Made by a program: the position numbers and the translations under genes. A stretch of 40,339 nucleotides of DNA from a virus, in IMG/VR virus record IMGVR_UViG_3300024989_000002. The stretch is one strand, 5' to 3'. Within the stretch, counting starts at the first letter, position 1. Every line of letters starts with the position of its first letter. The notes beneath the pieces were generated by a model. The model was not told the DNA's origin, ran no database searches, and worked only from the letters and a program-made list of their open reading frames with translations. Of this stretch, positions 5,938-40,339 are shown in pieces.

Positions 5938-6584
5938 CCAACCCCACCCCGCCCGCGACCCTCACCGAGGCGCTCAGCGCCTTCCAGGCCGAACTGCCCC
6001 GCGTGCAGAAGGGTGCACGCAACGACCACTTCAAGTCGTCGTACGCGGACCTCGCCGACGTCGTCGGCGTCGTCCTCCCCGCGCTCGCCCGCCAGGGCCT
6101 CGCCTGGGTGACCGTTCCGACGATGACGGAGGCCGGGTTCCGGCTCGAGTACAGCCTGCAGCACGTCGGCGGGGAACGGATCGACGGCTCCTGGCCGCTC
6201 CCGAATCCGACCGAGAGCACTGCACAGGCGGTCGGGTCCGCGATCACGTACGCGAAGCGCTACGCGCTGTCCGCGGTCACCGGCGTCGCTCCCGATCAGG
6301 ACGACGACGGAAACAGCGCATCCCAGCAGGGAGCACCCGCCGCCGCGCCGAAGGAGTGGAAGAAGCAGGTCGCGGCCGCCGCGTCCGTCGCGGAGCTGCA
6401 CGAGATCTACCAGTCCGCGGAGCGCGACGGATGGCTGAACGCATCGATCATCGCGAGCCTGAACGCCCGCCGTGCCGTGCTGAGCACCCCGGCCGCGCCG
6501 GACGCCGCCGACGCGTACGAAGCGGCGGCATCGGCGGAGTACGACGCCGCGGTCGCGCGTGGGGAGGTGGCCGGTCGTGTCTGA
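5934..6584 (+). CDS. ERF-family single-strand annealing protein, 216 aa
   Basis: LSAFQAELPRVQKGARNDHFKSSYADLADVV...GSAITYAKRYALSAVTG matches the ERF pattern as I recall it. AGGAGG lies 7 nt upstream of the ATG at 5934. ATGA overlap with the exonuclease gene. Confidence 0.75.
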   Translation: MTNPTPPATLTEALSAFQAELPRVQKGARNDHFKSSYADLADVVGVVLPALARQGLAWVTVPTMTEAGFRLEYSLQHVGGERIDGSWPLPNPTESTAQAVGSAITYAKRYALSAVTGVAPDQDDDGNSASQQGAPAAAPKEWKKQVAAAASVAELHEIYQSAERDGWLNASIIASLNARRAVLSTPAAPDAADAYEAAASAEYDAAVARGEVAGRV

Positions 6585-30816: not shown

Positions 30817-32010
30817 ATGCTGCGCTGGTTCATCGCCGATCTCCGCACCGGACGGCAACTCATCGACATCCAGGTGATGGCGGAGTCAACCTGGTCACGC
30901 TCGCTGAACGCCCCGGAGAAGCTCACCGCGGTGCTCGACATGCAGGACCCCGCGACGATCGCGTTGCGGCCTCGGCAGACGATCCGGCCGGGGCGGTCGG
31001 TGCTCGCTGTCGCGGTCGGCGATGTGATCCTCGCGGCCGGGCCGGTGTGGGCTCACGACTACGACCGCGATCAGAAGACGCTGCGGGTGACCGCGGTCGG
31101 GCTGTGGTCGTACTTCGATCACCGCTACCTGCTGCCCCTCGCCGCAGCGACCGCGGATGTCGCGACGTTCATCGTCTCTGACCCGGCTTCGGCGGGCAAG
31201 ACTATGCCGAACGCCGCGCTCGCGACGAACCTGTCGAACCTCGAGTACGGCACGATCGCGAAACGGTGGGTGCAGCAGGCGCAGGCGTGGACCGGCGGCA
31301 ACGTGCCCGTCGTGTTCGAAGCCGATCGCGCCGGCGGCCGCGAGCGGAACGCGGACGCCGTCGACTTCAAGAACATCGGCACGCTGCTCACCCAGTTGAC
31401 GCAGCTGGAGGACGGCCCCGATATCCGGTTCAAGCCGCAGTTCGCCGCGGACCGGCTCGGCGTGCAGTTCCTGCTGCAGACCGGCACGGACGCGAACCCG
31501 CTGATCACCGGCACCGCGGTGCACCAGTGGACGGTGGGCGTGCCGGGCAGTGGGGTGTCGGCGTTGAAGGTCGGCGTCGACGCGACGACTCTCGCGTCGG
31601 TCGCGTGGGCGTCCGCCGGTCGTTCGGTGGACTCGGTGCTCGTGTCCCGCTCCACCGACCCCACACTCACCGATCTCGGCTTCCCGCTGTTCGAGTCGCT
31701 CGACACCAGCCATTCGACGGTCGTGATTCAGGACACGCTCGACGGCTACTCGGGCGAGGCGACCACGTTCGGGCGCGCCCCGCTCGAGACGTGGACGTTC
31801 ACAGTCGAGGCGGCACGGCAGCCGCTGCTCGGCGCGTACTGGGAGGGCGACTGGTGCGACATCACGATCCCCGCGTACGACCCGGATCAGGGCCACGGTG
31901 ACCCGTACGTGTTCGAACAGTCGACCCCGCGGCGTCGCATCGTCGCGTTCGACGGCAACGCGAAGGGACTCACCGTGAACGTGACGACTCAGGCGGCGGT
32001 CAATGGGTAA
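30817..32010 (+). CDS. Tail tip / Tal-like minor tail protein, 397 aa
   Basis: Lies after the Dit-like gene; GAGGGGG RBS. Confidence 0.6.
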   Translation: MLRWFIADLRTGRQLIDIQVMAESTWSRSLNAPEKLTAVLDMQDPATIALRPRQTIRPGRSVLAVAVGDVILAAGPVWAHDYDRDQKTLRVTAVGLWSYFDHRYLLPLAAATADVATFIVSDPASAGKTMPNAALATNLSNLEYGTIAKRWVQQAQAWTGGNVPVVFEADRAGGRERNADAVDFKNIGTLLTQLTQLEDGPDIRFKPQFAADRLGVQFLLQTGTDANPLITGTAVHQWTVGVPGSGVSALKVGVDATTLASVAWASAGRSVDSVLVSRSTDPTLTDLGFPLFESLDTSHSTVVIQDTLDGYSGEATTFGRAPLETWTFTVEAARQPLLGAYWEGDWCDITIPAYDPDQGHGDPYVFEQSTPRRRIVAFDGNAKGLTVNVTTQAAVNG

Positions 32011-32779
32011 GGGGTACGCCAGCCCGCCGCAGGGCGAGTACGGGGAGCTGGAGCGGATCCTCAGCGACGTGCAGACGCGGCTGAAGGAACTCGAGACCCC
32101 CACGGGCACGAGCGTGAACAGCCTCGTCGACCAGGTGCAGCAGGCGATCGCCGACATCACCACCACAGTGACCGCCGCGATCGACGCGAACTCGTACACG
32201 CGGGCTGAGATTAACGCGCTGGTCGCGAGCCCGGGCGCGATCGCGCCGACGACGGTGACCGCGTCGGGCAGCATGTCCACGGCGGGCGCTCTCACCACCG
32301 GAAGCGACACGGTCGTCGGCGGTCAACTCCGCGCGCTCGACGCGGTCACGAACGTGATCACCAGCGGCCGGTACGCGACGTGGATCGAGACCGCGACGGG
32401 CCGCTTCGGGAACACGTCATCGTCGCGCCGCTACAAGCAGGACATCACCGAGGCGCAGATCGACGCGGATGTGTTCCTCACGATCGTGCCGTTCGTTTTC
32501 CACTACATCGCCGAGGTCCGGAAGCGCGACGACCCCATGTTCGAGGGGTACGTCGGCCCCGACTACGTCGTCGCCGACGAGTACGGCCTGATGGCGGAAG
32601 ACCTGCACGCCGCCGGCCTCACACCGTGGGTGTACTACGACGCCGCCGGCCTCCCCGACTCCGTGAACTACACGATGCTCGTCGTCCCGCTCCTCGCGGT
32701 CGCGCGCGCTGAGAAGGCCGCGCGGGCGGCGCTCGAGGAGCGCGTGACGCGCCTCGAATCCCTGATGGAAGGACACTGA
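32003..32779 (+). CDS. Tail fibre with a C-terminal peptidase-S74 intramolecular chaperone domain, 258 aa
   Basis: N-terminal coiled coil, then GNTSSSRRYKQDITEAQIDADVFLTIVPFVFHY, which matches the S74 autoprocessing motif (S-x-R-x-K-x-x-I). Confidence 0.7.
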   Translation: MGKGYASPPQGEYGELERILSDVQTRLKELETPTGTSVNSLVDQVQQAIADITTTVTAAIDANSYTRAEINALVASPGAIAPTTVTASGSMSTAGALTTGSDTVVGGQLRALDAVTNVITSGRYATWIETATGRFGNTSSSRRYKQDITEAQIDADVFLTIVPFVFHYIAEVRKRDDPMFEGYVGPDYVVADEYGLMAEDLHAAGLTPWVYYDAAGLPDSVNYTMLVVPLLAVARAEKAARAALEERVTRLESLMEGH

Positions 32780-37802: not shown

Positions 37803-38072
37803 ATGGGCTACCAGGCGATCGTCGGGTCCGCGGACCTGACCACGAAGATGCGCTACATCAGCTCGTACACGTTCACCGAGAACGCCGGCACCCCCGCGGC
37901 CGCGCGCGTCGTGATCCGTGACGGCAGCGCGTCCGGGCCGGTCATCATCGACGAGCCGATCGTCGCGGGCGGTGTCGCGAAAGGCGACCTCTCGAAGCCC
38001 GTGTTCTGCCCCAGCGGGGTCTACGTGCAGGTTACCACCGGCACCGTCCGCGGCTCGATCCGAGGCACCTGA
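37803..38072 (+). CDS. Small beta-rich protein, 89 aa
   Basis: The ATG lies 1 nt after the upstream stop; last plus-strand gene before the terminator. Confidence 0.55.
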   Translation: MGYQAIVGSADLTTKMRYISSYTFTENAGTPAAARVVIRDGSASGPVIIDEPIVAGGVAKGDLSKPVFCPSGVYVQVTTGTVRGSIRGT

Positions 38073-38110
38073 CGCAGATAAGCGCATAGCTTCTCCGGCG
38101 CACATATAAG

Positions 38111-38151
38111 CCCCCGGCTTCTACCCTTCCCAGGGTGGGAGTCGGGGGTTT
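38111..38151 (+). terminator. Strong intrinsic terminator between the convergent units
   Basis: 16-bp stem (38111-38126 pairing with 38133-38148; 13 Watson-Crick and 3 G-U pairs), loop ttccca, followed by TTT. Confidence 0.65.
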
Positions 38152-38224
38152 CCGGCGTTGTCGGCGGCATCCCGCAGGATGACCGCATGTCCGAGTGGCA
38201 CCCGCTCCTAGCCGCGGTCGAATC

Positions 38225-38524
38225 TCAGATCGGACGGCCGCGCAGGACCAGAAGAACACCAAGAACACCCGAACCGATCAGCAGGAACGCGATCCCGCGC
38301 ACGGCCCATACGATCGCGTTCTGGATTCCCGTGTACGCGTCTCCACCGTATTCGGTGGTGTTCGCATTGCTCAGAAGCACGATCGCGGCGATGATCGCGA
38401 ACACGGCGTACACGCCTGCCAGGATTCCTGCGAACGCGTTGCCACTGATGTCCTGCTCATACCGGGGGACAGCGGTCGCACCGCGGCCCTCCGTCGGTCC
38501 TGTTGGTGCTTCGCTGTCCGTCAT
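38225..38524 (-). CDS. Small two-TM membrane protein, 99 aa
   Basis: TM segments AFAGILAGVYAVFAIIAAIVLL and IAFLLIGSGVLGVLLVL with the loop TEYGGDAYTGIQNA. It is on the same strand as the integrase gene, downstream of it. Confidence 0.7.
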   Translation of the reverse strand: MTDSEAPTGPTEGRGATAVPRYEQDISGNAFAGILAGVYAVFAIIAAIVLLSNANTTEYGGDAYTGIQNAIVWAVRGIAFLLIGSGVLGVLLVLRGRPI

Positions 38525-38559
38525 GGTGTCCCCCGATCGTGTATGGCGAGAGCCTATCG

Positions 38560-38982
38560 TCAGGGCTTGAACGGCTTGTCACATTCCGGATGCGCGGGGT
38601 CCGGGACAGCGATCGAGAAGCAGATCACCGGGTAGCACGACGTGTCGTTGACGCCGTCGTTGCTATTCGCCGAGGACCCGGCCGGGCACCGTATTGGTGC
38701 TTTCGTCGCGGGTGCTGGGTTCTGCTTCTTCTGCGTGGTCGGAGGTGCTTGCGTCACGGAGGGAGAGGGAGTCGGCGTGGACACCTGCTCGACGGGCGTC
38801 GATGTGAGAGAAGGCGTCGGCGACGGAGTTGGCGAGGGCGTCGTCGTATCGACGATCGAAACCGTCGTAGCTACTTGCTCTTCAAGTCGCGGCAGGTTCG
38901 TGATCAACGCGTACGCTCCCCCGGCGACGGCAACGACGGCGACAACTCCGACCGCAGAGGCGATGATGCTCCTGATATTCAT
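38560..38982 (-). CDS. N-terminally anchored secreted protein with a Pro/Thr/Ser linker and a 4-Cys C-terminal module, 140 aa
   Basis: AAGGAG RBS. Signal-anchor IIASAVGVVAVVAVAGGAYALI, linker TTTPSPTPSPTPSLTSTP..., then C-x19-C-x4-C-x13-C. Confidence 0.7.
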   Translation of the reverse strand: MNIRSIIASAVGVVAVVAVAGGAYALITNLPRLEEQVATTVSIVDTTTPSPTPSPTPSLTSTPVEQVSTPTPSPSVTQAPPTTQKKQNPAPATKAPIRCPAGSSANSNDGVNDTSCYPVICFSIAVPDPAHPECDKPFKP

Positions 38983-39014: not shown

Positions 39015-39176
39015 ATGATTCCGATCGAAGATCTGACGGCCGAGCAGGAGGCGCTCAAGGAACCCACCATCGACTTGGCGGCGCGCGCGCTGCTCGACGC
39101 ACGCGACGAGATCGCGGCAAGGGAGAGCGACGCTAGCGGGCATCGATCCGAGCCATCGCATCAGCGGCATCCTTAA
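39015..39176 (+). CDS. Possible small protein, 53 aa, convergent with the integrase gene and overlapping its 3' end by 44 nt
   Basis: Not in the track. By hand count GC3 is about 82 percent and GC2 about 44 percent over 39 codons. The sequence MIPIEDLTAEQEALKEPTIDLAARALLDARDEIAARESDA... is plausible, but the RBS is weak. Confidence 0.35.
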   Translation: MIPIEDLTAEQEALKEPTIDLAARALLDARDEIAARESDASGHRSEPSHQRHP

Positions 39177-40236
39177 GCGCTTCCGGCATCAGGTGACCGT
39201 AGATCTGGGTGGTCGTCTGCACGGACTCGTGCCCAAGCCGGCGGGAAACGACGAAGATCGGCACGCCCTCCTGCAGCAGCCACGACGCGTGGGTGTGCCG
39301 TAGGTCGTGCGGCCGCGGCTCCTTCCGCAGCTTCGAGGCGTCGACGGCGTCCTGCCAGCCGTGGTTGTGGAAGGTGGTGTTGGTGAGCTGCGACCCCAGC
39401 GTGTTCGGGAACACCAGATCGTGCTGGCGATTGGCGGCAACGAGATCCGCGGCGAGTCCCGGCGTGATCGACACATCTCGGTCGCTCGGCGTGTTCTTCG
39501 TCGAGCCGATGAAGAACTTCCGGTGCGCGTCACCCTTCCACGCCTTGTCGACCTGGATGTAGGGAACGTCAGCGTCGAGGTGCAGATCATCCCAGGTCAG
39601 CGCTGTCGCCTCACTGAAGCGCATTCCGGTGCCGACGAGAACTCGCGTGAGCATCTGGTGTCGCTGGGGGATGTGCTCAAGGAGCGTGTCGAACTCAGCC
39701 TTCGTGAGGAAGGTGGCGCGCCGTCCGGCTCGATCCTCGTTCGGCAGTTCCACGAGCTCGCAGGGATTGTCGCCTCGCCACCCCCTCCTTACCGCGGTCT
39801 TGAACGCGCTCGAGAGCAGGCCCATACGATTCGCGATCGACTTCCGCGTCGCCCCGTCGCGCCGCTGCCGCTGGATCCATGCCGCTATGTGCTCGTCGGT
39901 GACCACGTCGACGCGCAACCCACCGAGCTGCTCGGTGAAGTGCGTCGCGATCATCGAGCGGTAGCCGGCAATCGTGCCCTCGTTCGCCCGGGTGAGCAGC
40001 GACAGGTGCCGCTCGAGCATCTCGCTGACGGTCGGCTTGCGACTCGCCGCGGCGGTGAGCATCTGTTCGGCCAAGGCGAACCTCTGGTCGTTGGCGTCCA
40101 GCAACCGGCGCAGCATCTCCGCCTCACCCTCAGTGGGGAACGTCATGCTCGTCTGGCGCCCAGACTCCGGGTCACGCCACAGCACAGCGAACGACGCCGC
40201 ACCCGTCTTCTGGACCCGCTTCCGAACGCTCGCCAT
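39133..40236 (-). CDS. int: Tyrosine integrase, 367 aa
   Basis: SAM-like N-terminal domain. Catalytic pattern GMRFSEA (R) ... HDLRHTHAS (H-x-x-R) ... LGHESVQTTTQIYGHL (Y). It lies adjacent to the tRNA-derived att core. Confidence 0.95.
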   Translation of the reverse strand: MASVRKRVQKTGAASFAVLWRDPESGRQTSMTFPTEGEAEMLRRLLDANDQRFALAEQMLTAAASRKPTVSEMLERHLSLLTRANEGTIAGYRSMIATHFTEQLGGLRVDVVTDEHIAAWIQRQRRDGATRKSIANRMGLLSSAFKTAVRRGWRGDNPCELVELPNEDRAGRRATFLTKAEFDTLLEHIPQRHQMLTRVLVGTGMRFSEATALTWDDLHLDADVPYIQVDKAWKGDAHRKFFIGSTKNTPSDRDVSITPGLAADLVAANRQHDLVFPNTLGSQLTNTTFHNHGWQDAVDASKLRKEPRPHDLRHTHASWLLQEGVPIFVVSRRLGHESVQTTTQIYGHLMPEALKDAADAMARIDAR

Positions 40237-40311: not shown

Positions 40312-40339
40312 TGGCGGAGACGGAGGGATTTGAACCCTC
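40312..40339 (-). repeat. att core, right copy: the 3' end of the (presumably intact) target tRNA gene, which continues beyond the window
   Basis: Identical to 1-28. The integrase gene lies immediately downstream of the tRNA 3' end. Acceptor GGAGACG with discriminator G and an encoded CCA would fit tRNA-Ser, but identity cannot be determined from this fragment. Confidence 0.85.

Follow-up and report, generated by a model that had tools for sequence, protein, structure and literature searches.

Two unrelated envelope cargo genes, candidates for superinfection exclusion, beside the integrase gene of a prophage at a Microbacterium tRNA-Ser site

The DNA discussed here is the IMG/VR record IMGVR_UViG_3300024989_000002, a stretch of 40,339 nucleotides that is referred to as the window. 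The whole window is a complete prophage, bounded by identical 28-bp attachment (att) direct repeats at a tRNA-Ser gene. At its right end, two small genes lie on the minus strand. Read inward from the att site, the order is the integrase gene, a gene for a protein of 140 amino acids (aa) at 38560–38982 and a gene for a protein of 99 aa at 38225–38524, with gaps of 150 nt and 35 nt, respectively. The late operon on the plus strand stops at 38072 and is followed by a terminator hairpin at 38108–38151, which separates it from the two genes. An initial annotation, made from the sequence alone, had placed the two open reading frames (ORFs) at exactly these positions and regarded them as a membrane-directed pair of exclusion candidates bounded by a bidirectional terminator. 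Its observation was essentially right, and its interpretation is partly supported, with exclusion as a candidate function. The terminator, however, is asymmetric. It is strong on the plus strand only, where a 20-bp stem is followed by UUU (z score −4.3); on the minus strand, the G-U pairs turn into mismatches, the structure is much weaker, the tail is only CUUAUAU and the z score is −0.9. The two genes are unrelated and independent cargo, not a system, and superinfection exclusion appears to be the function that best fits their position and architecture.

Both small genes are real. Full-length homologues of the 140-aa protein were found at E values of 1e-34 to 1e-15 and homologues of the 99-aa protein at 1e-16 to 1e-11. 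The homologues of both keep the start, the length and many invariant positions, and it is this conservation, including that of key residues, from which the reality of the genes follows. Shine-Dalgarno-like sequences (AAGGAGAAGGA and GGGGGA) precede the two genes. Their GC contents are 62.9% and 62.7%, with GC contents at third codon positions (GC3) of 0.74 and 0.72 for the 140-aa and the 99-aa protein, respectively. The region is GC-rich and carries many overlapping ORFs, which would suit an explanation by chance reading frames. This explanation is refuted by the dozens of homologues with conserved starts, lengths and invariant residues, and next to nothing speaks for it once the codon-position GC pattern, which looks coding, is considered as well; the overlapping ORFs on the plus strand have a poorer GC3 than the two cargo genes.

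Neither sequence had been recognised as a described family at the outset, and this still holds on the evidence of profile searches. Scans of both proteins against Pfam, PHROGs, NCBIfam and PADLOC gave nothing significant, and sequence-profile searches of the PDB with both families gave no match even at E ≤ 10. The best match in PADLOC-DB (E 0.0025) concerned only the low-complexity stalk of the 140-aa protein, and the 99-aa protein had none. The profile searches likewise gave no match to a housekeeping host family. Both families are therefore considered undescribed as far as such profiles can tell.

The 140-aa protein consists of an anchor, a stalk and a knob. The anchor is an N-terminal signal-anchor segment (residues 5–27; 38902–38970, minus strand), modelled by AlphaFold2 (AF2) as a helix of residues 3–28, in which G21 and G22 are conserved. 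The segment contains no Cys and therefore no lipobox, and the protein has no LPXTG motif either. The hydrophobic segments of the family have a median Kyte-Doolittle score of 2.08. The stalk (residues 28–94; 38701–38901, minus strand) is rich in Pro and Thr, carries TTTPSPTPSPTPS and is disordered in the AF2 model. The knob is a conserved family module with four Cys at the C-terminus (residues 95–140; 38563–38700, minus strand). The hydrophobic helix, the stalk and the four Cys had all been noted before. The spacing that had been given for the Cys, C-x19-C-x4-C-x13-C, has to be corrected to C-x16-C-x4-C-x12-C, since the residues concerned are C99, C116, C121 and C134.

When the last 49 residues were compared by phmmer with 1.84 billion representatives, 90 clusters were retrieved. 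Many homologue matches had shown a coverage of 30% and were suspected to be linker artefacts; this suspicion was rejected, as the search with the knob showed that the matches fall on the knob. The sizes of the family members range from 38 to 302 aa, excluding one unrelated repeat protein (P0139), and in all the others the knob is found at, or a few residues from, the C-terminus behind a transmembrane (TM) segment and a variable stalk. The spacing C-x16-C-x4-C-x12-C is kept in 71 of 89 members, in 77 of them the protein ends exactly six residues after the last Cys, and 25 positions of the knob are invariant among 12 close homologues. The stalk is hypervariable across the family, with a length of 21–135 aa (median 93); it is rich in A, P, V, T, E and Q, and its composition changes from Pro/Thr-rich to Ala/Gln-rich. 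A Pfam scan of the 90 members at E ≤ 0.01 returned only PKD or Big Ig domains inside the stalks of a few members, together with isolated matches in single members. Because these stalk domains are extracellular, the knob module is placed outside the cell. The topology and the disulfides of the 140-aa protein proposed below are predictions from its sequence.

The 99-aa protein is a plain helical hairpin in the AF2 model, with helices at residues 26–53 and 64–95 and a loop at residues 54–63, so that the two helices and the exposed loop TEYGGDAYTGIQNA reported earlier are present. The codons for the exposed loop (residues 57–70) lie at 38315–38356 on the minus strand. Y59, G61 and A63–A70 (YGGDAYTGIQNA) are invariant across eighteen relatives, and one face of the second TM helix (TM2) is conserved in the relatives through A74, G77, L81, S85 and G89. 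Since the C-terminus (RGRPI) is basic and the loop acidic, the positive-inside rule fits a topology in which both termini would be inside and the loop outside. In a scan of species-representative genomes, the motif was met again in Clostridia, Bacteroidia, Coriobacteriia and other Actinomycetota, where it runs on as AAAQTANN and always lies between two TM helices. YGGDAYTGIQNA is invariant also in the Clostridial and Bacteroidial relatives; the scan pattern was AYTGIQNA, so this invariance is partly a matter of ascertainment, yet the flanking YGGD and AAxTANN are outside the pattern and are conserved nonetheless. The 99-aa protein is a short member of an unannotated 2-TM module that is spread over several phyla, and the apparent invariance of the module across phyla is the most notable point. 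Many of the relatives bear cytoplasmic Zn-ribbons. No Pfam or NCBIfam family covers the 2-TM module, and no publication on the loop motif turned up when the literature was searched. Weak matches to Pfam DUF4064, a family of small bacterial membrane proteins, span both helices of the hairpin; with 11.7–18.8 bits (E 0.33 to 0.0019), for the hairpin as well as for its relatives in Clostridia, they stay below the cut-off of 32.1 bits, and the protein is not a member of that family.

The Cys family was found only in phages and prophages of Microbacteriaceae, with named genomes from Microbacterium, Salinibacterium and Gulosibacter, and in seven IMG/VR viral contigs. It is sporadic (4 of 401 sampled Microbacteriaceae genomes). 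In several prophages, the gene occupies the same slot as in the window. In the loci L001 and L002, it directly follows the integrase gene and overlaps the integrase stop codon by 4 nt, from which co-transcription of the two is likely. In L005, it lies 54 nt behind the integrase gene, and in L006 within 1.3 kb of it. The claim that accessory envelope genes of phages and mobile elements settle near the integrase is borne out, as relatives of each of the two families are found directly downstream of the integrase genes of other prophages. Other small membrane or envelope genes (SHOCT-domain, DUF2510/TM2) were observed just downstream of the integrase gene at L001 6462–6980 and L003 851–1201, and envelope cargo appears to collect in this slot quite generally in related Microbacteriaceae prophages.

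The assignment of the two genes to the lysogeny side of the genome held for the integrase-proximal slot and failed for the Cys family as a whole, which is also present in tail modules and in two lytic Microbacterium phages. In five loci (L003, L008, L075, L081 and L085), which represent at least three lineages without DNA similarity, the Cys gene is a reverse-oriented insert that is convergent with, and abuts, a homologue of the window's tail gene at 32003–32779. By its match to phrog_1330, this tail gene corresponds to the C-terminal part of long tail proteins, and it may have a role in receptor binding. A tblastn search of isolated phages gave weak matches in the lytic phages Wyvern (gp9) and Isperia (gp7), which are true, divergent members of the family; an hhalign comparison supports them over the first half of the module (probability 96.8%, E 2e-10). 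In both phages, the gene is located between the large terminase and portal genes, in the late operon, three genes upstream of the endolysin gene. No integrase or repressor was found in the full annotation of Wyvern, nor in the first 7.7 kb of Isperia. The Cys gene is therefore described as a phage accessory gene that is not confined to lysogeny modules.

The place of the gene in the late operons of these two lytic phages, so close to the endolysin gene, and its occurrence inside tail and late modules elsewhere would fit another function, in which both proteins would serve the lytic cycle: the hairpin as a holin- or antiholin-like protein and the stalked knob by acting on the wall at release, for instance in the regulation of lysis. 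The hairpin has the size of a class-II holin, a charged C-terminus and a weak match to Pfam Holin-X (E 0.26). However, this holin match (Pfam Phage_holin_3_6) amounts to 11.8 bits against a cut-off of 28.4 bits. Both window genes are on the integrase strand, with the terminator between them and the lysis cassette at approximately 33.9–35.5 kb, and the 2-TM relatives adjoin integrase genes or are located on non-phage elements. To our knowledge, an invariant extracytoplasmic loop is not a feature of holins. A lysis function is thus rather unlikely. The same distribution bears on the proposal that the genes are a case of lysogenic conversion, which benefits the host in ways unrelated to phages, such as adhesion, tolerance of envelope stress or interbacterial competition. 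The position, the atypical GC content and the sporadic distribution are typical of morons in general, and the surface-displayed architecture, with PKD or Big domains in the stalks of some members, would suit such a role. Against this stand the lytic phages, which keep the Cys family as well and gain nothing from the long-term fitness of a host, and the repeated abutment of the Cys gene on a tail gene; a benefit of this kind is considered unlikely.

The 2-TM family is also sporadic: it was present in 2 of 401 genomes of Microbacteriaceae and, in the order to which Neglectibacter belongs, in 5 of 301, and a tblastn search of isolated phages with the hairpin gave no match. The gene directly follows tyrosine integrase genes in L004 and L010 (Frigoribacterium) and in L059, where it lies 33 nt behind. 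In L057, it is at a prophage end with tail genes alongside. The Clostridial viral contigs L089 and L090 carry it between XRE-type repressor-like genes and a serine integrase gene, and in L080 it adjoins IS3 transposase genes. In L055, it is part of an integrative element with a D5-type primase, near genes that match CTD10, MC6 and DUF2326, which are families tied to conflict systems. Two further observations concern the neighbours of the gene. In the IMG/VR contigs L088 (5004–5951) and L091 (1953–2908), of GC content 0.42–0.45, the next gene after the 2-TM gene always encodes a Zn-ribbon and TM protein of 188–195 aa, beside a portal-like gene, and the two genes may form a conserved two-gene unit in this lineage. 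In the Frigoribacterium prophage of L004, a tRNA-Arg(tct) gene (6333–6406) comes right after the 2-TM gene and before the tail genes; it could be a phage-encoded or an att-associated tRNA.

The two families do not travel together. In the 80 loci that were fetched, the knob was present in 22 and the hairpin module in 61, and both were found only in the four copies of this same prophage. None of the genomes sampled for the counts of 4 and 2 in 401 had both. Because the families co-occur only in this prophage, the two genes are independent cargo, and the description of them as a pair or system was not upheld. An obligate two-component envelope system, in which knob and hairpin act jointly, would explain why the genes are adjacent and co-oriented with a gap of 35 nt, and their similarly low GC3 indicates that they may have arrived together. 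Such a system is nevertheless very improbable, as only these four copies carry both genes, neither genome sample yielded a genome with both families, and each family occurs singly beside integrase genes. An arrangement of this kind is represented by the RexAB-like pairs CarolAnn gp43/44, Sbash gp30/31 and Butters gp30/31 of actinobacteriophages, which are adjacent, lysogenically expressed genes near the integrase or repressor, one of them encoding a membrane protein (PMC6426606, PMC7542560). The window resembles them in having two neighbouring genes near the integrase, one of which encodes a membrane protein. However, in the RexAB-like pairs a 4-TM channel goes together with a DUF4747-like sensor in the cytoplasm, and the synteny of the two genes is kept, whereas the window genes encode a 2-TM protein and a predicted extracytoplasmic partner without a DUF4747 match in Pfam, and are not syntenic elsewhere. 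With no 4-TM channel, cytoplasmic partner or conserved synteny, a RexAB-like pair was rejected.

The cargo is a recent insertion, as shown by its low GC3 and by a truncated neighbouring gene. The GC3 of the cargo genes is 0.72–0.74, while that of the integrase gene is 0.85 and that of the late genes 0.90–0.94. At the edge of the cassette, at 38159–38221 on the plus strand, a remnant of a conserved prophage gene (MSEWHPLLAAVE) was found, of which 30 nt upstream and 12 codons survive. Over these 63 nt, it shares approximately 79% identity with the start of a gene that is intact in L005, where it encodes 85 aa, and it resembles a 100-aa gene of L006. The homology stops 3 nt short of the stop codon of the 2-TM gene, so that the remnant forms an insertion scar. 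Intact copies of the gene (MSEWHPILAAVE...RRT.DGPRYR.EHRGEL.GW) were observed at L005 6328–6585 (minus strand) and L006 5337–5639 (minus strand), near the integrase genes of two related Microbacterium prophages. L005 is Microbacterium ginsengisoli DSM 18659, which carries a different but related prophage at the same tRNA-Ser attB, with host flanks that are 98% identical. The knob protein of the DSM 18659 prophage is only approximately 49% identical to that of the window, while the holin region has approximately 80% DNA identity. Its knob gene is on the opposite side of a small ORF, designated 'geneB', relative to the window, and when conserved neighbours are taken as the reference, the window, L005 and L006 each have the Cys gene in a different place. 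The locus thus bears the marks of a moron: an atypical base composition, a presence and position that vary among related phages, and an insertion boundary.

Taken together, the two genes are tentatively read as unrelated accessory genes (morons) stacked in the integrase-proximal slot, which would bring about exclusion by means of the knob at the wall and the hairpin at the membrane. The probability of this reading is put at roughly 45%. Each gene would move independently, and the two would have been stacked by an illegitimate recombination that truncated the resident gene; their expression would be from the prophage. The 140-aa protein would be a type-II membrane protein with an N-in TM anchor and an extended Pro/Thr stalk of approximately 70 residues, ending in a 46-residue knob that probably contains two disulfides. 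The stalk would place the knob in or beyond the cell wall, where it would mask a wall-level receptor or engage the tail tip of incoming phages. Action at the wall is favoured because a long stalk of variable length fits a reach into or across the Gram-positive wall. As to the hairpin, the invariant YGGDAYTGIQNA loop and the conserved face of TM2 probably bind a conserved component of the envelope or membrane, and the protein would act at the membrane step, for example by stopping DNA entry.

Precedents are available for both proteins. Exclusion by the 140-aa protein would combine the anchor-spacer-effector logic of Ltp with the receptor-linked logic of Llp and Cor. The gene of Ltp, from the Streptococcus thermophilus phage TP-J34, belongs to the lysogeny module, close to the integrase gene; the prophage expresses it, and the protein blocks the injection of DNA (PMC3952083). 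Ltp and the 140-aa protein share a three-part build, with an anchor in the membrane, a spacer of low complexity and, outside the cytoplasm, a small effector. The differences are that Ltp is lipid-anchored, whereas the 140-aa protein has a TM helix and no lipobox (its first Cys is residue 99); that the spacer is Ser-rich in Ltp and Pro/Thr-rich here; that the effector is made of helix-turn-helix-like repeats in Ltp and of a 46-aa four-Cys knob here; and that the Cys family, unlike Ltp, is found in lytic phages too. No Ltp repeat domain was recognised in the 140-aa protein with Pfam and PHROG profiles. The llp gene of the lytic phage T5 is 'adjacent and downstream to pb5', the gene of the receptor-binding protein (PMC9586334). 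Llp of T5 and Cor of T1 and phi80-like phages share with the Cys protein that they are small envelope proteins of lytic and temperate phages. The Llp gene has receptor-binding or tail genes as neighbours, and a tail gene borders directly on the Cys gene in no fewer than five prophages or viral contigs; in the window, the neighbour of the Cys gene is the integrase gene instead. However, Llp and Cor are outer-membrane lipoproteins of Gram-negative bacteria that bind FhuA, while the Cys protein has no lipobox and no sequence similarity to them by PHROG and Pfam profiles.

Lactococcal Sie2009, T4 Imm and HK97 gp15 are small proteins with one or two TM helices that stop DNA entry. Comparable to them is a single membrane protein of mycobacteriophage Charlie, which is expressed from the prophage and excludes DNA injection (PMC6426606). 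By analogy, the Charlie protein would be the nearest functional precedent for the hairpin. Blockers of this type are similar to it in size and position, but they have no sequence relation to the hairpin, whose module spans several phyla and includes non-phage contexts.

A number of results weigh against an exclusion function of the two genes. The AF2 model of the 140-aa protein is poor (mean predicted local distance difference test, pLDDT, 54.5), and the knob is not confidently folded (pLDDT approximately 45–55), hence it offers no structural clue. The last residues of the anchor are AYA, and it could be cleaved off as a signal peptide, in which case the protein would be released and not tethered. 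A scan for sigma-70-like promoters found none, a scan that is uninformative for Actinobacteria, and the terminator at 38108–38151 is weak in the direction of the cargo strand. The Pfam, PHROGs, NCBIfam and PADLOC scans revealed no likeness to known exclusion or defence proteins. As to the hairpin, a member in Neglectibacter occupies a chromosomal-looking site between ABC-F and recX. In Ruminococcus sp. CAG:488 (L073/L074, 8001–8759), a YukD-type ubiquitin-like domain and a Zn-ribbon are fused to the YGGDAYTGIQNA two-TM module, in an operon that encodes ThiF (E1), UQ_con (E2)-FHA, a trypsin-like protease, JAB and two Prok-RING proteins and that adjoins an integrase gene and helix-turn-helix/ImmA-like genes. 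The fusion has the look of a ubiquitin-like precursor that is anchored in the membrane and carried by an integrative element. The 2-TM family is thus present outside recognisable phage contexts as well, and its core activity may be more general than phage exclusion.

The same fusion also speaks for a different role of the hairpin, namely that of a membrane effector or tether, either a latent pore or toxin of abortive infection or a docking module for partners. In the Ruminococcus operon, the module is the C-terminal membrane part of the ubiquitin-like protein, elsewhere it is often fused to cytoplasmic Zn-ribbons, and the integrative element of L055 has it near the CTD10, MC6 and DUF2326 matches. 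However, the prophage version has neither a cytoplasmic sensor domain nor a conserved partner, and its most conserved part would point outward and not to the cytoplasm, which makes this role quite improbable. A broader scheme is likewise regarded as unlikely. In it, the 2-TM module of Actinomycetota, Clostridia and Bacteroidia would have its minimal form, borne by phages, in the 99-aa protein, and the outer loop would bind an envelope component that is conserved universally; phages would thereby shut the route of DNA entry, and other mobile elements would employ the module at the membrane-docking or effector end of operons for ubiquitin-like conjugation, while the knob would be a new family of wall-spanning receptor masks specific to Microbacteriaceae phages.

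Few temperate Microbacterium phages have been isolated, and we know of no superinfection-exclusion protein described for this host group. The knob family offers a compact, testable exclusion candidate of anchor-spacer-effector design, and its stalks, which vary naturally in length, look as if they gauged the thickness of the wall. Through the hairpin, a membrane module without annotation comes to light, which has a 12-residue outer loop that is apparently invariant across phyla and is carried by phages, by integrative elements and in a ubiquitin-like operon; once found, the ligand of the module could account for a cargo gene that recurs on mobile elements. The locus also illustrates clearly how an integrase-proximal cargo slot is filled, as related prophages at one tRNA-Ser site of two near-identical hosts differ in the layout of their cargo, and one layout shows an insertion scar. 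The prophages of the window and of DSM 18659 are a natural pair for immunity and exclusion tests.

The left att core copy (1–28) is identical to the right copy (40312–40339, minus strand), which is the 3' end of the host tRNA-Ser(gct), and M. ginsengisoli (L005) has the left copy with 100% identity at the 3' end of its own tRNA-Ser(gct). In a metagenomic copy of the prophage (L051), the full tRNA and host genes run on beyond the window boundary, and this host flank is 98.2% identical to that of DSM 18659. The tyrosine integrase gene (39133–40236, minus strand) encodes 367 aa (Pfam PF00589, E 1.5e-30; phrog_1, E 1e-72), with 87% identity to the integrase at the same tRNA in DSM 18659. Between the integrase and Cys genes lies a convergent small ORF of 53 aa ('geneB-like'; 39015–39176, plus strand) that overlaps the 3' end of the integrase gene. 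It is outside the cargo but marks its boundary. Positions 39040–39113 within it have 77% identity to L005 6191–6264, which belongs to a small ORF downstream of 'geneA'. This relative in the M. ginsengisoli prophage (L005 6161–6330, minus strand) is similar in both DNA and protein (LT.EQEA...DLAA.ALLDARDEI), which suggests that the 53-aa ORF is a real small gene. The C-termini of the two diverge where the ORF enters the 3' end of the integrase gene.

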